Source: Escherichia coli (GTDB taxonomy: Bacteria > Pseudomonadota > Gammaproteobacteria > Enterobacterales > Enterobacteriaceae). Taken from it: DNA of 64,000 nt. Positions 1 to 63,933 of this stretch are shown here, in pieces; position 1 is the first letter of the stretch; each line of letters starts with the position of its first letter. The notes under the pieces were generated by a model that saw nothing but the letters and a program-made list of their open reading frames with translations, was not told the DNA's origin and made no database searches. Location: assembly GCF_013315695.1 (NCBI RefSeq), contig NZ_CP054356.1; one strand, 5' to 3'. The translations under genes were made by a program, and so were the position numbers.

Positions 1-2
1 AT

Positions 3-389
3 TATATTGATGATGAAGATTACCGCCGGCGCATTCTGACCCAGCTTAATCGGGGAGAAAGTCGCCATGCCGTTGCCAGAGCCATCTGTCACGGTCAAAA
101 AGGTGAGATAAGAAAACGATATACCGACGGTCAGGAAGATCAACTGGGCACACTGGGGCTGGTCACTAACGCCGTCGTGTTATGGAACACTATTTATATG
201 CAGGCAGCCCTGGATCATCTCCGGGCGCAGGGTGAAACACTGAATGATGAAGATATCGCACGCCTCTCCCCGCTTTGCCACGGACATATCAATATGCTCG
301 GCCATTATTCCTTCACGCTGGCAGAACTGGTGACCAAAGGACATCTGAGACCATTAAAAGAGGCGTCAGAGGCAGAAAACGTTGCTTAA
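3..389 (+). CDS. tnpA: Tn3-family transposase TnpA, C-terminal fragment (5' part lies outside window)
   Basis: Open frame from window edge to stop at 387-389; C-terminal peptide (..LWNTIYMQAALDHLRAQGETLNDEDIARL..) matches recalled Tn3 TnpA C-terminus; followed directly by the Tn3 terminal IR. Confidence 0.8.
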   Translation, partial: YIDDEDYRRRILTQLNRGESRHAVARAICHGQKGEIRKRYTDGQEDQLGTLGLVTNAVVLWNTIYMQAALDHLRAQGETLNDEDIARLSPLCHGHINMLGHYSFTLAELVTKGHLRPLKEASEAENVA

Positions 390-422
390 CGTGAGTTTTC
401 GTTCCACTGAGCGTCAGACCCC
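385..422. mobile_element. Tn3-type 38-bp terminal inverted repeat (tnpA-proximal end of transposon)
   Basis: CTTAACGTGAGTTTTCGTTCCACTGAGCGTCAGACCCC is the reverse complement of the canonical Tn3 IR GGGGTCTGACGCTCAGTGGAACGAAAACTCACGTTAAG. Confidence 0.85.
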
Positions 423-956
423 GTTTTCATTCTAATGGTGTAGTAGTTTCACGTCACGCGCACGTGCATATTCTTCGAAAGCTTCGGCGTTAGCCGGTCA
501 ACCAGGGGTTTGAGGCCCAACCGTACGAGATCGTACGCTAAGTTCATTTTTTGAGCAGAAGAGGTGAGTAAAGAAAACGAGGGTTTTATTTACTCTTCCC
601 GTCAATGCCAGTAGCCATGCGGTTTCAGGGACTTTCAGTGTTAATAAACTCGGTAATCAAATCAACGTAAACCTGCCTAACAACGCCACGACTTTATTGA
701 CTTAAAATCATATAGTTAGCTTCTTAGCGTACGTTTCCGCTCCATTGGGCTTCAAACCCCACACCCAATGACATGAGAAAAGCTGGATCTGATTCTCAAA
801 ATGCTGGGATACCCATCGAGATGGAGAACTCAGTCAATGTTCCATTCTTTCTGAAATATGTGTGGGGACACTGATCTGTCGGGAGCCGGATGCGGTAGTT
901 CCGCAGGTCCGGTTCTGAGGAGGGGCCCGTCCGGGCAACCGGCGGGTCTACTCACC

Positions 957-1520
957 TCATCCCCCTACAACCACTCCCATTCGTTTAAGTATTTTTAAAC
1001 CTGCTTCCTGTGGTATCTTTATAGATAAGATCCTGTTTATCTCAGGATTTATATCGAGACCTTCTGTCATTGAAAAATCACAGTGAGACAAATCAGAATG
1101 TCTGAACTCTGTATTATTAAACTCCGAACCAGTAAAATCAGATTTACGAAGGTCTGTTTCCTCAAATAAACAATCACGGAAGCGACAGGATAAAAAAATA
1201 GATTTCTGTAACCGTAAACTAATAAAATCAACAAATCTCAAATCACAATTTACAAGAGAAAAAGTACAGGGAAACATAATGTCTGCTGCATTTACTCCTT
1301 GTAATAAACAATCTTTGAATTCACAGTCAATAAGTTTAAAAAAATTAAGTTTTAAATTCTTTATTGAGCAGTTTACGAAGCGACATTTTTCGAACTCACA
1401 ATCGCGAAAGTTAAAGTTGTCAAGCTGTATTCGTTCAAATATACAATTGTAATAATTTACACCTGATAATTCACTTTCACTGAGGTGTCGTTTTGTGATT
1501 CTTTTTTCTATTATATCCAT
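957..1520 (-). CDS. mcbG: Microcin B17 immunity protein McbG (pentapeptide-repeat protein)
   Basis: 187 aa, runs of pentapeptide repeats (..CEFEKCRFVNCSIKNLKLNFFKLIDCEFKDC..); last gene of mcbABCDEFG order. Confidence 0.9.
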   Translation of the reverse strand: MDIIEKRITKRHLSESELSGVNYYNCIFERIQLDNFNFRDCEFEKCRFVNCSIKNLKLNFFKLIDCEFKDCLLQGVNAADIMFPCTFSLVNCDLRFVDFISLRLQKSIFLSCRFRDCLFEETDLRKSDFTGSEFNNTEFRHSDLSHCDFSMTEGLDINPEINRILSIKIPQEAGLKILKRMGVVVGG

Positions 1521-1523
1521 GTG

Positions 1524-2255
1524 TCAGTCTCCTGTTCCCATAACTTCTTTAATAAATGCCTTTTCTGGAGTTGTTTCATTATTGGATTGAATAAAATCAC
1601 TCATATCAGAATAACGATTTATACTATTTTTTGAAAGCATATAGAAGGGGATTTTATCTCTTGTTAATTCATCAAAAATATGAGTTGAGAAAAATACCGT
1701 TTTCCCGTCAGCGGTGATCTTATTTATCAGTTCCCATAACATCATTCTGTACTGAATATCAATGCCTACAGTTGGTTCATCCAGTAAAAATAAACGGGCA
1801 TTTTTGCAAAGCGTTAGCATCAAAGATATGATAAGCCAACGCTTCTCTCCATAACTTACCGTGTAAGTCCTTTTACGTCTTATTTTATCATAGCGAATGA
1901 AAAAATTATCATTCCATTTATGATTAAGCTCTGTCCATGCCTGTTTTTTAGTTAACTTATTGAAGCAGCAAATCAAATCAAGAACCTCCTCATTCCTTAG
2001 TGTACCTGAAAGATTTATGACTTGAGGTAGACTTACTAATTCTCCACCAGAGAAATTTCGCTTGAGGGTCCCTTCATAATTACTGACTCCGCCCCTGATA
2101 AGGTTAAAAAGAGTGGTCTTCCCGGCTCCATTTTCTCCAAGCAGACCTATCAACTCTCCCTGCTCAATCTTAAGCGACAGATTATTGAAAACAGGGGGTA
2201 AATTTACTTTATATGAAAAGCTCAGAGAGTTGATTTCTAAAAGAGGTATGGTCAT
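1524..2255 (-). CDS. mcbF: Microcin B17 export/immunity ABC transporter ATP-binding protein McbF
   Basis: Walker A GENGAGKTT, ABC signature-like SGGE, Walker B LFLLDEP; position in operon. Confidence 0.9.
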   Translation of the reverse strand: MTIPLLEINSLSFSYKVNLPPVFNNLSLKIEQGELIGLLGENGAGKTTLFNLIRGGVSNYEGTLKRNFSGGELVSLPQVINLSGTLRNEEVLDLICCFNKLTKKQAWTELNHKWNDNFFIRYDKIRRKRTYTVSYGEKRWLIISLMLTLCKNARLFLLDEPTVGIDIQYRMMLWELINKITADGKTVFFSTHIFDELTRDKIPFYMLSKNSINRYSDMSDFIQSNNETTPEKAFIKEVMGTGD

Positions 2256-2977
2256 TGAGAACTCCAGACTGGCTCAGTTTTGAAGGTTAGTGCTGAAATA
2301 ATACTTATGATTAACATTATACTATAGAAAAATATCGTCATCAGAGACAACTCCTGGTCTGACTGGAGTATTGTAGAATAGATGGCGATAGGATTAACCT
2401 GATTTATCCAGTAAACGATCCCCTCATTATATTTTAATGATACAATTCCTGATACCATACAGACAGTTATTAATACAGAATAGATAGTGCTGGCTGTTTG
2501 GAATGTGACTCTGAACGATGCCATGAAAGTGAGTGAAACCATCATAAATGCATTTATGTATATCGATTTTAAAATAATCATTACTATTTGATAATCTGGA
2601 CTTGCCTGGAATCCTGTTAGTACGACTAAAATGAAAAAAAACACATACAAAATAGACATGATAAGTGAGGCTATTAATTGAGAACGAATAAATAATAGTC
2701 GACCATCCATATTATGCACGAAGGTAGCAATAAAACCACTTTCTCTTCTTCCGACCAGATACAGACAGTAATTAAACAGAACAACAGAAAAAGAAATGTA
2801 GCCTACAAACCATGATATTTGTTTTCCGAGCCATGCTGTATCACCATAATGAAGTTCAATTTCATTGAAATGAAGGAAAAAGAACAACACTGTAGGTGAC
2901 ATAATTGTCCATATTAAGCTGAAAGGGGTTCTGATTTGTTCCATCAGAAAAATTATCGCCATTTTTAATGTAACCAT
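2252..2977 (-). CDS. mcbE: Microcin B17 export/immunity ABC transporter permease McbE
   Basis: 241 aa highly hydrophobic multi-TM protein, translationally coupled to mcbF. Confidence 0.85.
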   Translation of the reverse strand: MVTLKMAIIFLMEQIRTPFSLIWTIMSPTVLFFFLHFNEIELHYGDTAWLGKQISWFVGYISFSVVLFNYCLYLVGRRESGFIATFVHNMDGRLLFIRSQLIASLIMSILYVFFFILVVLTGFQASPDYQIVMIILKSIYINAFMMVSLTFMASFRVTFQTASTIYSVLITVCMVSGIVSLKYNEGIVYWINQVNPIAIYSTILQSDQELSLMTIFFYSIMLIISIISALTFKTEPVWSSQ

Positions 2978-2986
2978 TTGTTATCC

Positions 2987-4177
2987 TTATGGGAATGGTA
3001 CCATCTTTGATTCTCTGACTTTAATACCGTCCCCGGTATGGTAAATTTTATTATTAATGTTTATTGCACCTGAGTTATTCATATGAAGGAAAAAATCAGG
3101 GCTTACTATTTTTGTGTACCAGACAAGGCTGTTACTTACTCTTTCCCTGGCATAGTAAACAAAAATATTATCAGAAATTTGTTGAAGATAGTTTAATAAA
3201 TTTGTGTCTGACGTAATATTTTCCTCAAGCGTTAACTTGACATCATCAGACAGTAGTACCGTATTTTCACACAAATCCGTAAACGACTCGTACTTGTTGC
3301 ATGACATAAAGTGACGCTGGTAACTATCAATAATGTCATCATCAGTATAACCGCCAATAAGAAAGTTGTGCAGGCATATATACGATTGCCACAATTCCAC
3401 TACGGATTTACAAAGTGCTTTTTTCAGACTATTAGCATAGGATAATCCGGTACTGTATTTTATTCGACTGATTTTGTTTTTTGTGCCATACAGGGTTAGT
3501 ACTGCGTGTCCAGGAGCTCCGGGCAGGGTGATATCGAAAATCCTGATATCTCCTTCTGACCTGAGAGCCAGTAAAATCTCATCTATATGATTTATGCCTG
3601 TTACTATTTCACTGGATATTTCAGTATTGGCTTTTCCCTGTAACCAGTAAAGAAGGAGGGACTGTCTCTCCATAAATTCACACAAGGAACCTTCTATGGC
3701 ATCGTTCAAACTACCATGAAAGCTACATCCGCATGTATCTCTGTCAGGATAAAATTTCAGATCATCTGCAGCGGTTATATTGTCGAGTGCAATTATGACT
3801 GCAGGTATTTCTTGTTGTTCAAGGCTAAACAGATTAAAGGCTCTGACCGTTTTAAATTTATGGGTTATGATTTCATCGCGGGTCAGTGATGAGATCTGAA
3901 AAAATGCTTCGGTAAAAGCCTTTGCAGCAGATGGAGGCATCATCTCATATAATGTTTTCTGACCACCGGTGACTATCTCATTAAAAAAATGACGGCGTTC
4001 AAAATATTCACCTATTGCCCCCTGAATTGACTTCAGAGTTTCACCGGCCGCGCTGGCTGGTGTAATACGCTCATAGTCCCATATCTGAGAAAACGTTGGC
4101 ATATTTCTGTTCAGTTTTGGACTCATGGCCATTGTGGCCGGCCATGCGGACATAAGGTTACTGTAGACATTTATCAT
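2987..4177 (-). CDS. mcbD: Microcin B17 synthetase subunit McbD (YcaO-type cyclodehydratase)
   Basis: 396 aa, operon position between mcbC and mcbE; size matches McbD. Confidence 0.85.
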   Translation of the reverse strand: MINVYSNLMSAWPATMAMSPKLNRNMPTFSQIWDYERITPASAAGETLKSIQGAIGEYFERRHFFNEIVTGGQKTLYEMMPPSAAKAFTEAFFQISSLTRDEIITHKFKTVRAFNLFSLEQQEIPAVIIALDNITAADDLKFYPDRDTCGCSFHGSLNDAIEGSLCEFMERQSLLLYWLQGKANTEISSEIVTGINHIDEILLALRSEGDIRIFDITLPGAPGHAVLTLYGTKNKISRIKYSTGLSYANSLKKALCKSVVELWQSYICLHNFLIGGYTDDDIIDSYQRHFMSCNKYESFTDLCENTVLLSDDVKLTLEENITSDTNLLNYLQQISDNIFVYYARERVSNSLVWYTKIVSPDFFLHMNNSGAININNKIYHTGDGIKVRESKMVPFP

Positions 4178-4976
4178 CGTTTACATCTCCAAAAAACTGA
4201 ACGATCAGTGGCGCTACAGTCCTCTGATCCAGATTCATTGTTTTTGCTACGTATGAATCGGTATATCCCGCCCATACCCGGTTTTTCAGTCCTATTTGAT
4301 CTGCAACCAATACTGCGTTCTGATACATCGAACCTGTTTCCATTAAGGCCATCCGGTATCCTCTGTAGCGATATTTGAACAAAGCTTTTTCAAAAATAAT
4401 GCAATAGACGAGAGCAAAATGGGGTTTACCAAGACGTTCCGAATCCCCACCGGACAGGCTTCGGTAGAGTGACTGAGTATTACATGTAGCAACAGGTTCC
4501 AGTGCCTGACTTAGCGGCAGGTAGTGATAAACATTAGTTCCTGCCTGCCAGTTTTCTGTATTTTCAGATAATCTGCATAAAAAAACTTCAATCGGGTACA
4601 ATGCCCCCCCAGAAGGATAAGGTCTTCTTACAGAGCCAGGATCAGGTGAGCTGAATGCATTGACTAATAACTTTTCAATAGTACGAATGGAAAGTTTATT
4701 TTTGTCGCAAAAGTTTATTCCTGATGGGAGCCTTTCACGACTAAAATTATGTGATGAGGATATGTTTATTACGGAGCTGAAACCTGGCCTGAAGAGAACT
4801 TCTTTATTTTCAAATTTCTCCAGATGGGCAAGAGGTACCGCGGACACGAAAGTTCGTTCAGCAAATTCGGGGAGGGAAGCAAAGTTACCTCTGACATGAA
4901 AATCTTTAACAATGGCCAGAACTTCAGGATCTGTGTAATGCGTTACTTCCACTAAAGAGAGTTCGTGTTTTGACAT
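4158..4976 (-). CDS. mcbC: Microcin B17 synthetase subunit McbC (FMN-dependent dehydrogenase)
   Basis: 272 aa, operon position; size matches McbC. Confidence 0.85.
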   Translation of the reverse strand: MSKHELSLVEVTHYTDPEVLAIVKDFHVRGNFASLPEFAERTFVSAVPLAHLEKFENKEVLFRPGFSSVINISSSHNFSRERLPSGINFCDKNKLSIRTIEKLLVNAFSSPDPGSVRRPYPSGGALYPIEVFLCRLSENTENWQAGTNVYHYLPLSQALEPVATCNTQSLYRSLSGGDSERLGKPHFALVYCIIFEKALFKYRYRGYRMALMETGSMYQNAVLVADQIGLKNRVWAGYTDSYVAKTMNLDQRTVAPLIVQFFGDVNDDKCLQ

Positions 4977-4977
4977 G

Positions 4978-5865
4978 TTATCTCTCCAGACAGCTGCAAG
5001 CCTGCCAGTGAATTACCGGCTCTTTACATAAAATACAGGTGATTAAATCAGCGCTAACAGATGACATAAAGTTATCGACATGACTTTTAACCAGTGAAGT
5101 ACCTGTCAACTCCTGAAGTCGCCGTTTTATTAAATGATAGCTGAATCCTCTTTCTGATTCGCCTAAAGCCAATGCTGGTAGTGTCATTTGGTATTTTTTC
5201 AGTAACTGAAGTAAGTTTGCCCAGGACATTTCGTTACGTCTGAAGCTTTTTTCTTCCCTGCTCAGCCATCTCTCTATATGACAAAAATGGCAGGGAGTAC
5301 CAAGATCAGGTGAATATACTCCATCTATCCTGAATGACTCCTTTAGGTAGTAGCTTTGGATGAAGGCAACACCAGGGTTACTTTCAAATTTTGAATAGAT
5401 TCTTTTTACAATGTCTGAATGATAGTTTTCGAGATGTAACCAGATTAGTGTTGAATCGCTCACATTAATATTATTATCTTTTATATCAATGATATGAGAA
5501 ACAAAAACACCATCAGATTTCCATTGTTCCCGGGCATTACTGAAAAGATGTGGAACATCGCTTATTATGACTGAGTTTACCCAGAGAGGTGATGTTTTCG
5601 TTTTATTTATCACGCCTGTGGTAATAAGAAACTCTTTGCCCTTGTCTTTATCAATAAGCGATTCGTCCAGTAGTTTATCAAGGAGGTATTCAGAAATAAT
5701 ACCCTGTTTGGATCGTAGGCTTTCGAGTACTTTTTTCATTCCCTCATGTGTAATGTCTACTGAAGAAATGTAGGTAATAAGCAGGGTCTTTGTATTTCTG
5801 GAAATTATCTCAAACGGCAGAATATTGATCATATCTTTTCCTTTTTTAATATCAGGGAGCACCAT
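4978..5865 (-). CDS. mcbB: Microcin B17 synthetase subunit McbB (zinc-binding scaffold)
   Basis: 295 aa, Cys-rich C-terminus (CHFCH..CILC..C.C), directly downstream of mcbA. Confidence 0.85.
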   Translation of the reverse strand: MVLPDIKKGKDMINILPFEIISRNTKTLLITYISSVDITHEGMKKVLESLRSKQGIISEYLLDKLLDESLIDKDKGKEFLITTGVINKTKTSPLWVNSVIISDVPHLFSNAREQWKSDGVFVSHIIDIKDNNINVSDSTLIWLHLENYHSDIVKRIYSKFESNPGVAFIQSYYLKESFRIDGVYSPDLGTPCHFCHIERWLSREEKSFRRNEMSWANLLQLLKKYQMTLPALALGESERGFSYHLIKRRLQELTGTSLVKSHVDNFMSSVSADLITCILCKEPVIHWQACSCLER

Positions 5866-5891
5866 GCTCCCTGAACGGTTAATTCAACGTA

Positions 5892-6101
5892 TCAGATATG
5901 TGAACCACTTCCGCCGCTGCCACCGTTTCCACCACTACAACCGTTGCTGCAACCACCACAACCGCCACCTTGACCACCGCAGCTACCGCCGCCGCCGCCG
6001 CCGCCACCACCACCAATGCCAACACCTAATGGAGACTGGCGTGATAATTTAAGAGCATCAACGGACAAAACTACACCAAATTCACTCGCTTTTAATTCCA
6101 T
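5892..6101 (-). CDS. mcbA: Microcin B17 precursor peptide McbA
   Basis: 69 aa MELKASEFGVVLSVDALKLSRQSPLGVGIGGGGGGGGGGSCGGQGGGCGGCSNGCSGGNGGSGGSGSHI; matches recalled McbA with leader plus Gly/Ser/Cys core. Confidence 0.97.
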   Translation of the reverse strand: MELKASEFGVVLSVDALKLSRQSPLGVGIGGGGGGGGGGSCGGQGGGCGGCSNGCSGGNGGSGGSGSHI

Positions 6102-6320
6102 AAGGACTCCTTTTTTAAGGGAAATTAATGCTTATGACATCTGAATAGTATGTTGGCCAACACTAGTTACTTGCCGTCATTAACTATATTTTGCAATGAT
6201 AATTTGAACTAAATTTGTACGCCTGTTAAATATTTAATAATAATATCAGTTGGTTATGTTTATGCTGTTATTGTTTTTTTACAAAAATTAATATTGTGTT
6301 TACATTTTGCTTTCAGTTGC
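6102..6320 (-). promoter_or_regulatory. mcbA upstream promoter region (AT-rich; expected site of the OmpR-dependent stationary-phase Pmcb promoter)
   Basis: AT-rich 200 bp directly 5' of mcbA on the minus strand; exact -35/-10 not assigned. Confidence 0.4.
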
Positions 6321-6630
6321 TGTCAGGATGTCACACTACCCCTTTAAGCCCCCACTGGTCTGGCAGGGCCGGGGGTGGGTAAGGTGAAACCTGTCAATCA
6401 GTACCGGCTTACGCCGGTATCATATGCAACAACTGAGTGCCGCCTTCCATATCATATCATTTGCCCGTTTCCCGCCGTGCAGATCCGGTTTCCGGCTGAA
6501 GTGGATCCAGACCTGATTTGTTGCTGAGTATCGGTAAAAGAGCGGCTTATAATCTATTCTGAAACATGGCAAGTGAATCTGGGCTGTATAATTCCGGCAA
6601 GTGTCATCTGTATTTAAAGGTCGTGTGAGT

Positions 6631-7083
6631 ATGAAATTTATGGAATGTGCTGTCCGGGATGTGATTTATGGGACCAATGTCCGTATTGTCAAACCGGTCA
6701 ACATTTATGAATGTGAACTCAGGGACAATGTGTTTGTCGGCCCCTTCGTTGAGATACAGAAAGGCTGTGTCATTGGTAGTGGAAGCCGGATACAGTCGCA
6801 CACGTTTATTTGTGAGAACGTAACACTGGGGGAGAACTGCTTCATTGGTCATAACGTGACGTTCGCCAACGATCTGTTTCGTTCAGGAGCACCAGATCCG
6901 TCACCGGATAACTGGATCAGCATTACCCTGGGGGATTCGGTTACTGTTGGCAGTGGAGCCATTATTCTGTCTCCGTATATATGCAGCGGAGCTGTTATTG
7001 GTGCGGGGGCAGTTGTAGTAAAACCGATTGAGAACAAAGGCATTTATGCAGGAAACCCGGCAAGACTGATCAGAATATTATGA
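6631..7083 (+). CDS. Hexapeptide-repeat (left-handed beta-helix) acyl/acetyltransferase
   Basis: Repeated [LIV]-G-x-x-x-x hexapeptides (IGHNVTF, LGDSVTVGSGAIILS, IGAGAVVV); ORF track starts at alternative GTG 6601, ATG at 6631 more likely. Confidence 0.75.
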   Translation: MKFMECAVRDVIYGTNVRIVKPVNIYECELRDNVFVGPFVEIQKGCVIGSGSRIQSHTFICENVTLGENCFIGHNVTFANDLFRSGAPDPSPDNWISITLGDSVTVGSGAIILSPYICSGAVIGAGAVVVKPIENKGIYAGNPARLIRIL

Positions 7084-7839: not shown

Positions 7840-8801
7840 TAATTACCTATGAGATACATACCGTTAACTAAATCATATTGAGAGTTATTGGTTTTAAAAA
7901 AACGTTCATCACGAATCTGTGTGTGTTTTTTTACTGCATCGCATATTAATTCTGCGCCACCACCTATAACCATAACATGAGTATAACCAGAAAATTCATT
8001 GAGTGTATTTAATACACGTTGCTCAAGTTTACGAAGTGCTTCATTCATTGCTTCGGTGACTATTGATATTTTATTCTCATCATTAATTCGTTGCTTCAGA
8101 TAGTTATTATCTTTTCTGTGAATAATTATATCGTCAGCAAGATAGCTACTTCCTTTTGTTCTCGCAAGAGAAAGGGCATCTTTTACTGCAGATGTGACCA
8201 GAGATACACCAAGAGATGAGTCTCCGTATATTTTACTGATTCCCGATAATTTCCCCATTACCTGAGAAATATCTAATGTGGTGCCCCCGAGATCTATAAT
8301 TAATAAAGAATCTAACTCATCCAGTTCTTGTAGAACTTCATAACCTGCCGGTATAGATTCAGGCATGACTTTTACATCTTTTATTGTGAATGTATCCCCA
8401 CCATTTAATGTAATTTTTTTCCGGAAGTTTGCTTTCTTACGCTCAATATTTTCCGTATTGGGTTGGTTATTCCTGTCGTAATACTCTGTCAGAGGAAGTG
8501 TGCAAACAATATCCACTTCGCTTACCGGCAGACCACTGGTCAGTAAGGCGTGGTGCACCGCAACGACATTAACGTCGCTGTATTGCCATGCGATATTGGT
8601 TGTGACTACAGCATCCGGGCTGATTGGATCAAATGAATACTGTTCGCCGTTCAGTGTGTAGTTAAAGACCTTTTTATCACCAAAAGAAACTGCCCACTCG
8701 CGTTTGAAGCTGTTCGGGCTAATGTGCTGTTTAATTGTTCCGTCGCTTTCCTGCCACTGTAGTTTGATGTTTGTTGAACCGTCATCAATGAATACCAACA
8801 T
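7839..8801 (-). CDS. parM: Plasmid partition actin-like ATPase ParM (StbA)
   Basis: 320 aa [25 protein letters not shown].. matches recalled R1 ParM. Confidence 0.95.
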
Positions 8802-22403: not shown

Positions 22404-22559
22404 TGCGGCAACAATCGCACAGATTACCCGTAAACAGCCTGAATGAGCGGGTTATTTTCAGGAAAAGTGAGTGTGGTCAGCGTGCAGGTATATGGGCTAT
22501 GATGTGCCCGGCGCTTGAGGCTTTCTGCCTCATGACGTGAAGGTGGTTTGTTACCGTGT

Positions 22560-22640
22560 TGTGTGGCAGAAAGAAGATAGCCCCGTAGTAAGTTAATTTT
22601 CATTAACCACCACGAGGCATCCCTATGTCTAGTCCACATC
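22560..22640 (-). ncRNA. Putative sok/flmB-type antisense RNA (approximate)
   Basis: Inferred from hok/mok architecture: antisense to mok leader; boundaries not determined. Confidence 0.3.
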
Positions 22641-22837
22641 AGGATAGCCTCTTACCGCGCTTTGCGCAAGGAGAAGAAGGCCATGAAACTACCACGAAGT
22701 TCCCTTGTCTGGTGTGTGTTGATCGTGTGTCTCACACTGTTGATATTCACTTATCTGACACGAAAATCGCTGTGCGAGATTCGTTACAGAGACGGACACA
22801 GGGAGGTGGCGGCTTTCATGGCTTACGAATCCGGTAA
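22625..22837 (+). CDS. mok: mok-like modulator-of-killing reading frame overlapping hok
   Basis: 70-aa ORF overlapping the hok frame, as in hok/sok and flm loci. Confidence 0.6.
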
Positions 22838-26584: not shown

Positions 26585-26692
26585 AAGAAATTTGACTTCG
26601 TTCAAATATCAGAGTTTTTATGATTTAAAAAGGTGACAGTACGAAAGATAATTAGTATATTAATTACGTGGTTAATGCCACGTTAAAATTTG

Positions 26693-26775
26693 AATTTGAA
26701 AATCGCCGATGCAGGGAGTTCTCTCCTCCCCGCATCGACTGTCCATAGAATCCTTTGTGAGGAGGTTCCTATGTA
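26693..26775 (-). ncRNA. finP: FinP antisense RNA (approximate)
   Basis: Antisense to traJ leader/RBS; two stem-loops (e.g. CGATGCAGGGAG..CTCCCCGCATCG) and minus-strand U-tail (plus GAATTTGAAAATC). Confidence 0.6.
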
Positions 26776-27460
26776 TCCGATGGATCGTATTCAACAAAAA
26801 CATGCTCGTCAAATAGATCTGCTGGAAAATCTGACGGCAGTTATTCAGGATTATCCAAATCCAGCCTGTATCAGGGACGAAACTGGAAAATTTATTTTTT
26901 GCAATACGCTGTTTCATGAGTCATTTCTTACACAAGATCAAAGTGCTGAAAAATGGCTTCTGTCGCAGAGAGATTTTTATGAATTGATCTCTGTCACAGA
27001 GATGGAAGCATACAGGAATGAGCATACGCATCTTAATCTTGTAGAGGATGTTTTTATTCAGAACAGATTCTGGACAATATCTGTCCAGTCATTTCTTAAT
27101 GGACACAGAAATATTATTCTGTGGCAATTTTATGATGCTGCTCATGTTCGTCATAAAGACAGTTATAATCAAAAAACGATTGTCAGTGATGATATCAGAA
27201 ATATAATCAGAAGAATGAGTGATGATTCTTCTGTATCATCATATGTAAATGATGTATTTTACTTATATAGCACCGGAATCAGTCATAATGCTATAGCAAG
27301 AATATTAAACATATCCATCTCCACATCAAAGAAACACGCATCTCTGATATGCGACTACTTCTCTGTTTCTAATAAAGATGAGTTAATCATCTTACTCTAC
27401 AATAAAAAGTTTATTCATTATTTATACGAGAAGGCTATGTGTATCATAAATATGCGTTAA
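26771..27460 (+). CDS. traJ: Transfer operon activator TraJ
   Basis: ATG with RBS GAGGAGG; MYPMDRIQQKHARQIDLLENL..; track ORF extends upstream to 26690. Confidence 0.85.
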   Translation: MYPMDRIQQKHARQIDLLENLTAVIQDYPNPACIRDETGKFIFCNTLFHESFLTQDQSAEKWLLSQRDFYELISVTEMEAYRNEHTHLNLVEDVFIQNRFWTISVQSFLNGHRNIILWQFYDAAHVRHKDSYNQKTIVSDDIRNIIRRMSDDSSVSSYVNDVFYLYSTGISHNAIARILNISISTSKKHASLICDYFSVSNKDELIILLYNKKFIHYLYEKAMCIINMR

Positions 27461-62808: not shown

Positions 62809-62950
62809 AAGCGGGAAATGGAGGTAATGGTCAGCAACAGGGAATGTGGTATTATCGCGGCGGGTGTCTGAGCCTTTCTGGTTCAGGCAAGACGCAGGTA
62901 CCAGAAATGCGAAGACCCCACTTGTTAATCCATTAACTCGTGAGGCCTGC

Positions 62951-63010
62951 ATGAAGTACGTAGCACTACTGATTGTAGCCTCTTCCTTGCAGAGAGGTCA
63001 AAGTTTATGA
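62951..63010 (+). CDS. pndC/mok-like leader reading frame (19 aa) translationally coupled to toxin gene
   Basis: ATG 62951; stop TGA overlaps toxin ATG (ATGA); architecture as in pnd/srnB loci. Confidence 0.5.
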   Translation: MKYVALLIVASSLQRGQSL

Positions 63011-63156
63011 CGAAATATACCCTTATCGGGTTGCTCGCCGTGTGCGCCACGGTGTTGTGTTTTTCACTGATATTCAGGGAACGGTTATGTGAGCTGAATA
63101 TTCACAGGGGAAATACAGTGGTGCAGGTAACTCTGGCCTACGAAGCACGGAAGTAA
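63007..63156 (+). CDS. pndA: Hok-family toxin PndA/SrnB-like, 49 aa; below ORF-track size cut-off
   Basis: Translation MTKYTLIGLLAVCATVLCFSLIFRERLCELNIHRGNTVVQVTLAYEARK; matches recalled PndA/SrnB core. Confidence 0.88.
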   Translation: MTKYTLIGLLAVCATVLCFSLIFRERLCELNIHRGNTVVQVTLAYEARK

Positions 63157-63792: not shown

Positions 63793-63885
63793 ACTGGTTC
63801 TGATGTGGATTTACAGGAGCCAGAAAAGCAAAAACCCCGATAATCTTCTTCAACTTTGGCGAGTACGAAAAGATTACCGGGGCCC
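63793..63885 (-). ncRNA. copA: CopA antisense RNA of RepFII replicon (approximate)
   Basis: Target stem-loop on plus strand CCCCGATAATCTTCTTCAACTTTGGCGAGTACGAAAAGATTACCGGGG in repA leader; boundaries approximate. Confidence 0.5.
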
Positions 63886-63933
63886 ACTTAAACCGTATAG
63901 CCAACAATTCAGCTATGCGGGGAGTATAGTTAT

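Follow-up and report, generated by a model that had tools for sequence, protein, structure and literature searches.

The microcin B17 operon mcbABCDEFG was examined, together with the DNA next to it, in a 64,000-nucleotide stretch of Escherichia coli contig NZ_CP054356.1 (assembly GCF_013315695.1), referred to here as the window. Between the 3' end of mcbG and the terminal inverted repeat (IR) of a Tn3 transposon lies a spacer of 534 bp (positions 423-956). Judged by comparison with related plasmids, this spacer appears to be the ancestral sequence that canonically follows mcbG in plasmids of the pMccB17 type, and it is very probably an accumulation of scars left by mobile elements rather than a functional module. 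That level of confidence applies to the explanation as a whole, the ancestral spacer together with its history of scars. We propose no function for the spacer other than supplying the stop codon of mcbG. The original prediction, made from the letters of the window, had left two options for this DNA: the native 3' region of mcb with Tn3 inserted beside it, or a remnant of another element. The first was borne out. The second was right that the DNA is a remnant but not that it derives from one element, since it holds a relaxase gene stub, a complete miniature element, an intron fragment, and, at its mcbG end, the tip of an IR. As its refutation, the prediction had named a spacer identical to the canonical sequence and free of mobile-element signatures; only the first half of this applies, since many such signatures are present in the canonical spacer.

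The spacer was found to be 100% identical in about 100 plasmids. In PLSDB, 98 records cover at least 80% of it, and positions 423-1110 are at least 80% present in 103 of the 5,426 complete E. coli genomes. In a Tn3-free relative of 69,183 bp (L121), the gap between mcbG and the neighboring gene, which encodes a DUF6710 protein, is 569 bp. The published coordinates of pMccB17 (ON989342) also give a gap of 569 bp between gene_14 (DUF6710) and mcbG. The pMccB17 locus (ON989342; X07875/M24253) is like that of the window in gene order, protein lengths, the 569-bp gap, and McbG, which is MCBG_ECOLX. It is unlike the window in that the window carries Tn3 within the 569-bp gap.

The window begins inside a Tn3-type tnpA gene, the 3' end of which occupies 1-389 on the plus strand (stop codon TAA, 387-389). 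More than 5000 plasmid records, annotated as Tn3-like transposase, match positions 330-422 at 95-100%. The intact 38-bp IR at the tnpA-proximal end of Tn3 adjoins the gene (385-422, minus strand; GGGGTCTGACGCTCAGTGGAACGAAAACTCACGTTAAG, 0 mismatches), which agrees with the predicted Tn3 end about 500 bp from the operon. This exact 38-bp sequence occurs once in the window, with 0 occurrences expected in shuffled sequence. It is followed by GTTTT (423-427), one copy of a 5-bp target-site duplication. The other end of this Tn3 lies beyond the window, so both ends were read in the sister record NZ_CP024888.1 (L001), where GTTTT stands ahead of the distal IR (630-634) and again after the proximal IR (8001-8005). 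Tn3 has therefore inserted simply, duplicating 5 bp (GTTTT), a feature that the original prediction had proposed to check at the other transposon end. The empty site, ...GATGATGGTTTTCATTC..., is uninterrupted in the Tn3-free plasmids L005 (AP026457.1) and L121, and the junction of Tn3 with the spacer was found in only 16 PLSDB records compared to the 98 that cover at least 80% of the spacer. The Tn3 insertion is clean and recent, and it leaves mcb untouched. Extra insertions around this locus were seen in the sister plasmids, at 3526-5930 of AP026457.1 and at 3600-5851 of NZ_CP024888.1: an IS66-family element just upstream of the start of the DUF6710 gene, and ISEc10 (IS21 family) within the tnpA of Tn3.

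The segment of the spacer next to Tn3 (423-504, minus strand) is what is left of the 3' end of a MobF-family relaxase gene, recognized by its sequence similarity to mobF. Over 52 nt, it is 84.6% identical to the mobF 3' end of the IncN2 plasmid p271A and of about 80 similar plasmids. The relic runs for 40 bp more beyond Tn3, and its stop codon overlaps the ATG of the DUF6710 gene. Its translation reads ...EEYARARDVKLLHH, stop, NENHHPDHDKEGYRQ, stop, compared to ...EEYERARDVELPQHEHENHQHDHDKEGYGL, stop, in p271A. By BLAST, spacer segments 82-339 and 336-534 (query numbering) each occur separately in other plasmids. The longest open reading frame (ORF) in the spacer encodes 46 amino acids (aa), in line with the predicted lack of any ORF of 60 aa or more.

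Alternatively, the spacer would be nothing more than the native untranslated or terminator region at the 3' end of mcb, devoid of mobile-element ancestry. Its invariance in about 100 mcb plasmids and the equal length of the pMccB17 gap fit such a reading, as does the 2024 pMccB17 paper, which reports no identifiable insertion sequence (IS) or other mobile element on the plasmid. We consider this explanation extremely improbable. Sub-segments of the spacer occur separately in unrelated plasmids, two 38-bp Tn3-family IRs lie inside it, and it contains 196 nt of a group II intron in addition to the relaxase stub. No intrinsic terminator was found after mcbG on the minus strand of the spacer, and the GC content jumps at position 966. 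The dispersed segments, the intron tail, the IRs, and the relaxase stub refute a spacer without mobile ancestry. Although pMccB17 has been described as lacking mobile elements, its 569-bp gap shows relics of at least three.

A complete element in the ancestral spacer lies at 505-760 (plus strand, 256 bp). It seems to be a Tn3-derived inverted-repeat miniature element (TIME), a type of miniature inverted-repeat transposable element (MITE), and it is apparently unnamed. Its size, its IRs, its autonomous relatives, and its dispersal fit the class, and its mobilization is putative. The left IR (505-542) and the right IR (723-760) form 38-nt imperfect inverted repeats (GGGGTTTGAGGCCCAACCGTACGAGATCGTACGCTAAG and its partner). 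Both carry the Tn3-family signature GGGG...ACGNTAAG, of which there are 3 in the window against 0.11 expected. The left IR contains the palindrome CGTACGAGATCGTACG (523-538), made of two self-complementary CGTACG hexamers. This palindrome had been pointed out in the original prediction, and it is not a chance feature but part of a 38-bp terminal IR. The element is non-coding, as the ORFs that overlap it have just 32 and 35 aa and none reaches 60 aa, and its length is within the 50-500 bp range used for the class. Between the IRs there is a conserved hairpin with a 13-bp stem (566-595).

The IRs link this element to full transposons. The left IR is identical to the right IR of IS101 at 34 of 38 positions, and the two IRs are 34/38 and 32/38 identical to those of three larger transposons (L056, L032, and L093). 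L032 and L093, elements of 3.9 kb and 5.7 kb from Photorhabdus and Erwinia, encode a Tn3 DDE transposase (PF01526) and a resolvase. L056 is a 9.5-kb autonomous transposon of Salmonella arizonae that has TIME-type IRs and is flanked by a perfect 5-bp duplication, GTTAA. IRs of this type were present in 106 stretches when one genome per species was scanned. Full-length copies of the 256-bp element itself were found in 209 PLSDB plasmid records, at 79-100% identity and in unrelated contexts. It is a multi-copy element, present in at least 15 species of Enterobacterales, and the mean column identity of 15 aligned copies from different genera is 88%. Among the loci that carry it are sites next to yacAB and stbA as well as chromosomal contigs. 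In the copies of the window and of other records (L018, L020, L022, L023, L028, L066, L074, L077, L078, L088, L101, and L104), the right flanks tend to be AT-rich and to begin with TA; the left flanks do not.

TIMEs are an established class (PMC4133298, PMC13367494), and four of them from Enterobacteriaceae have been catalogued (PMC13367494). Like the known TIMEs, the element at 505-760 is small and non-coding, has 38-bp Tn3-family IRs, and is plasmid-borne in Enterobacterales. Its internal sequence is unrelated to those of IS101, MITESen1, and TIME244, with 50-57% identity in global alignment (Table S2 of PMC13367494). It was therefore not identified as MITESen1, despite the equal length of 256 bp, nor as IS101 or TIME244, since only its IRs resemble those of IS101. 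It was set apart from IMU by the Tn21-type IRs of IMU, not by alignment. In some records, IRs of the same family stand back to back as pairs of 50-68 bp: L063 10820-10869 (Erwinia sp. ErVv1), L062 2534-2583, and L027 2080-2147 (a Desulforhopalus metagenome-assembled genome). Among them is a perfect palindrome of 50 bp, GGGGTCTGAAGCCCAACCGTACGAGATCGTACGGTTGGGCTTCAGACCCC. Such pairs may be minimal IR-IR elements or by-products of transposition.

Some properties of 505-760 could also be expected of a functional plasmid site, such as an Frpo/ssi-type single-stranded DNA promoter or initiation hairpin, or a dimer-resolution site. Its single strands each fold into a long hairpin that is closed by the ends of the unit (z of about -3.8 on both strands), its copies are mostly plasmid-borne, target duplications are missing from 15 of the 16 copies examined, and its internal sequence, including the hairpin with the 13-bp stem, is well conserved. 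Yet the long hairpin is merely the pairing of two 38-bp IRs that carry the GGGG...TAAG signature and are up to 34/38 identical to IRs of autonomous transposons. The unit is dispersed over many unrelated loci and genera, and one copy, in Pantoea stewartii, has a perfect 5-bp duplication (TAAAC), the only one among the 16. In addition, no Rfam model matched 505-760, and an intron specific for IRs, described below, uses the right IR of this element like a real Tn3 IR. A promoter of the Frpo/ssi kind or a cer-like site was therefore rejected as very unlikely.

Next to the TIME, positions 761-956 (plus strand) are the 3'-terminal 196 nt of a group II intron, corresponding to about nt 1716-1911 of a 1911-nt intron. 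The fragment holds approximately the last 31 codons of the reverse transcriptase (RT)/maturase gene, with a TGG to TGA nonsense change at 774-776 and the natural stop codon at 852-854, followed by domain V (about 883-916) and domain VI (about 918-954). The GC-rich hairpins at 881-956, which the original prediction had also noted, are these two domains and not chance structures. The Rfam model RF00029 (Intron_gpII) matched at 881-956 over its full length and ended exactly at 956, with 34.4 bits (E 7e-4), which is under the gathering score of 40. The decisive evidence for the identity of the intron is its match to the 3' end of a complete ltrA intron on an enterotoxigenic E. coli plasmid (L002), at 94.4% identity over 197 nt. 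The L002 intron is collinear with the fragment, has 1911 nt, and begins with GTGCG. Its 443-aa protein matched TIGR04416 with 316 bits (cutoff 300) and contains RVT_1; no HNH or other endonuclease domain was detected in it. The fragment in the window is a dead remnant because only about nt 1716-1911 are left and a nonsense codon has arisen.

Nine contexts of this intron lineage were compared, the window and eight others, among which four introns are full-length and others truncated. In all eight other contexts, the outer 9-10 nt of a Tn3-family IR lie directly 3' of the intron, and truncated copies retain this tip as well. The tips seen were TCAAACCCC, TCAGACCCC, and TCAACCCCC, together with a variant of 10 nt (TCGGAACCCC) and one degenerate form (CCAACCCAT). 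For each of the four full-length copies, the inner 29 nt of the IR make up the 5' exon. The L002 copy (2285-4195) occupies a Tn1000-like IR after a tnpA remnant. In pJJ1887-5, a plasmid of sequence type 131 (ST131; L122, 1785-3696), the intron sits in the bla-proximal IR of a Tn2/Tn3 transposon with blaTEM, so that the sequence reads ...GTTCCACTGAGCG, the intron, TCAGACCCC. In Serratia sp. M24T3 (L076, 2076-166, minus strand), it is in the right IR of a TIME of the family described above. In the fourth (L009, 1275-3191), the IR-like sequence is degenerate. The Serratia copy starts with TTGCG, not GTGCG, and the ltrA gene of pJJ1887-5 is annotated as frameshifted. The Tn3 IR of the window (385-422) has the same sequence as the occupied target in pJJ1887-5 and is unoccupied here.

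These positions indicate that the lineage inserts 9 bp inside Tn3-family IRs, and the regular placement suggests target specificity. A search for exon-binding and intron-binding sites (EBS/IBS) gave one clean candidate, in which intron nt 169-175 (AAUGGAA) would pair with exon positions -12 to -6 (UUCCAUU); this pairing is a prediction. The search gave no convincing candidate for EBS1, and exon positions -1 to -4 vary among the targets. Group II introns that home to mobile DNA include RmInt1 in ISRm2011-2, E.c.I4 in transposase genes of the IS3 family, and the IIC-attC introns in integron attC sites. The intron lineage found here resembles them in its RT/maturase ORF, domains V and VI, site-specific insertion in mobile DNA, and frequent 5'-truncated fragments. 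What sets it apart is where it inserts: 9 bp from the tip, in the terminal IRs of TIMEs and Tn3-family transposons. In the searchable literature, we found no description of a group II intron that targets these IRs or of an intron beside mcb. IS4321 and IS5075 of the IS1111 family are reported to target the 38-bp IRs of Tn21-family transposons (Partridge and Hall 2003). Both they and the intron are mobile elements that parasitize a Tn3-family terminal IR at a fixed position and presumably disable that end. IS4321 and IS5075 are DNA insertion sequences on Tn21 IRs, whereas the intron is a retroelement on Tn3, Tn1000-like, and TIME IRs.

In the window, the 3' exon of the intron fragment is TCATCCCCC (957-965, plus strand). 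These 9 bp overlap the end of mcbG and form the outer tip of a Tn3-family IR. On the minus strand, the tip reads GGG GGA TGA, the final two Gly codons and the stop codon of mcbG. It matches the consensus tip at 7 of 9 positions and the tip in L002 at 8 of 9; the chance of a match of at least 7/9 is 0.0013. Aligned McbG homologs, down to 25% identity, have 186-187 aa and end in ...GV[VI][IV][S/V/L/T], compared to ...GVVVGG for the pMccB17 type. DNA homology to two clusters of mcbG homologs (one from Salmonella, one from a metagenome) stops exactly at 965/966, where the window has GTGGTTGTA followed by GGGGGATGA and the homologs have GTGGTTGTTGTATAG and GTGATTATTTCATAA. Of the 123 PLSDB records that carry an E. 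coli-type mcbG, 121 have the joint of intron and mcbG, and the other two have a shorter intron fragment. The canonical McbG protein sequence of 1988 already has GG at its end. Because of these last two points, the scar at the mcbG terminus is ancestral to the pMccB17 lineage.

The intron might have reached this place without a transposon. It would then have entered the native end of mcbG directly, by ectopic retrotransposition, and TCATCCCCC would be native mcbG sequence. Ectopic retrotransposition does occur among introns whose proteins have no endonuclease domain, the tip has two mismatches to the consensus, and no inner part of an IR survives. Against this, the mcbG homologs diverge exactly at the boundary of the tip and end in S, V, L, or T and a stop codon, not in GG and a stop codon. 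A 7-8/9 match at this fixed position has a chance of about 1e-3, and recognition appears to involve a 5' exon sequence, TTCCAYTG, which would also be needed by chance. We regard a direct ectopic entry as unlikely and favor an IR at the end of mcbG as the target.

We place about even confidence in a joint proposal on the intron and its fossil. It holds that a retrohoming lineage specific for Tn3-family IRs, with a protein that has no detectable endonuclease domain, splits and probably inactivates the IRs that it enters; that its targets are Tn3/Tn2, Tn1000-like elements, and the unnamed 256-bp TIME; and that it is the retroelement counterpart of IS4321/IS5075. The stop codon and the final two codons of mcbG would be a fossil of a transposon end invaded in this way, and pMccB17 itself would carry three relics there.

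The following order of events would account for the spacer. A Tn3-family element would have inserted at the extreme end of mcbG, and its 9-bp tip (GGGGGATGA in the sense of mcbG) would have replaced the last one or two codons. This IR would then have been the retrohoming target of the group II intron, which would have entered it 9 bp inside the tip. One copy of the TIME would have inserted into the intron, while another sat in a mobF gene. Recombination between the two TIME copies would be the most likely route by which the mobF stub was joined to the intron tail; alternatively, this joint would be the product of an unresolved replicative transposition or an adjacent deletion. Either route would remove most of mobF, the 5' part of the intron, and the transposon that had hosted it. 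The last step, much later and confined to a minority of the plasmids, this one included, would be the entry of Tn3 (blaTEM) into the mobF relic, 82 bp from the TIME, with duplication of GTTTT. As it stands, the TIME borders the intron at about nt 1716 and, at its opposite end, roughly the final 120 bp of the mobF gene. We infer that the TIME lies at a recombination joint and is not a simple insertion because a truncated mobF and a truncated intron flank it and its 5-bp flanks are unrelated.

The hexamer CAACCA abuts the left IR of the TIME (499-504) and recurs at 968-973, 2 nt past the IR tip, inside mcbG. This repeat is what a single insertion would draw on: the whole block 505-968 (TIME, intron tail, tip, and TAC) would have entered an ancestral sequence in which ...GGTCAACCA was directly followed by CTCCCATTCG..., with AACCA as its target duplication. 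However, AACCA is 3 nt off the IR tip, and the intervening GTA (Val) matches a Val or Ile codon in all mcbG homologs. The ancestral McbG implied by such an event has a 17-aa tail that is found in no homolog, and on the left the block is bordered by the relaxase relic and not by DNA of mcb. The predicted empty site for an insertion of 505-968 was not found in PLSDB. These data make a single insertion highly improbable compared to the stepwise history.

Several points weigh against the stepwise history. The recurrence of CAACCA is left unexplained by it, and the tip in the window departs from the consensus at 2 of 9 positions. The Rfam match to the intron tail is below its gathering score, as noted above. 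The TIME of the window shows no target duplication (AACCA on one side, ACACC on the other), matching 5-bp flanks are likewise missing from 15 of the 16 copies, and active transposition of the TIME family is suggested by its IRs and distribution. Frequent recombination between copies may account for the missing flank matches, as may unresolved cointegrates of an element that seems to have no res site. Loss of direct repeats by recombination or deletion is plausible, and MITESen1 is likewise reported to have copies that lack flanking direct repeats (PMC13367494). The sequence comparisons establish what each part is and where it ends, the duplication and empty site of Tn3, the IR target of the intron in other plasmids, and the break in mcbG homology at the tip, whereas the succession of events and the exchange between two TIME copies are reconstructions. 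No intermediate was found, such as a cluster in which the complete intron or an intact IR lies beside mcbG. The match of the spacer to the prototype pMccB17 is based on the length of the gap in the published coordinates and on the approximately 100 identical relatives.

The operon itself is complete, as the original prediction had held: mcbABCDEFG is present as seven intact minus-strand ORFs (957-6101), in the order A to G. The protein lengths are all equal to those in the 2024 resequencing of pMccB17 (ON989342). mcbA (5892-6101) encodes the 69-aa microcin B17 precursor with its canonical sequence and its Gly/Ser/Cys-rich core (NCBIfam NF041037, 132 bits, cutoff 70). The microcin synthetase is encoded by mcbB (4978-5865, 295 aa), mcbC (4158-4976, 272 aa), and mcbD (2987-4177, 396 aa). 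McbB matched its NCBIfam model above the cutoff, with 289 bits, and McbC has a SagB-type dehydrogenase domain (95.7 bits, cutoff 78.4). The SagD/YcaO match of McbD was significant but sub-cutoff (50 bits vs 219). Export and immunity are assigned to mcbE (2252-2977, 241 aa) and mcbF (1524-2255, 243 aa). McbF gave significant matches to ABC ATPases, with the best models under their cutoffs, and no NCBIfam model matched McbE. mcbG (957-1520) encodes the 187-aa pentapeptide-repeat immunity protein in its canonical sequence, with a significant, sub-cutoff match to a Qnr-like pentapeptide model, and it is identical to the UniRef cluster sequence named MCBG_ECOLX.

The predicted AT-richness of the operon was also seen. 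GC content is 0.30-0.43 over mcb and about 0.45-0.50 in both flanks; the jump at 966 is the mcbG-side edge of the AT-rich block, and the rise at about 6330 is its other edge. Just past the mcb promoter region, an ORF at 6601-7083 encodes a 160-aa hexapeptide-repeat acetyltransferase. On the mcbA side, no second Tn3-family IR was found; the entire 64-kb window has three IR signatures. Since the mcbA side lacks such an IR, mcb as part of a composite element was rejected. A divergent mcb cluster was seen in Salmonella enterica (GCA_015282185.1; L010, 4632-8561). Its McbG is 89% identical, has 186 aa, and ends in VVVV and a stop codon, and a Tn3-family transposase gene follows within about 1.7 kb. 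There may be a repeated association of mcb clusters with Tn3-family elements.

At the gathering threshold, Rfam models matched between 15161 and 63916 of the window. The matches were to the traJ 5' untranslated region/FinP (26666-26777), CopA (63826-63916), two sok antitoxin RNAs (22509-22685 and 62862-63017), and antisense RNAs to traI and traG. These are RNAs of an IncF backbone, and the window is therefore a conjugative IncF plasmid, like pMccB17.

The finding is a modest one, a case of ordinary plasmid mosaicism in which the new details are the unnamed TIME, the IR-targeting intron lineage, and the transposon-derived terminus of mcbG. For the microcin B17 operon, it means that the 3' end of mcbG, including its stop codon, is transposon-derived and forms one edge of the AT-rich mcb block, which was acquired horizontally. 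Where the prototype microcin B17 plasmid is annotated as lacking mobile elements, that annotation is incomplete. TIMEs currently attract interest because two of them together can mobilize resistance genes, and this 256-bp TIME, though widespread, is absent from the catalog of Enterobacteriaceae TIMEs. If the specificity of the intron lineage is true and undescribed, the intron could act as a natural "transposon-end killer" and could help to date insertions of the Tn3 family. It would also affect the mobility of blaTEM transposons, such as the one on the ST131 plasmid pJJ1887-5.

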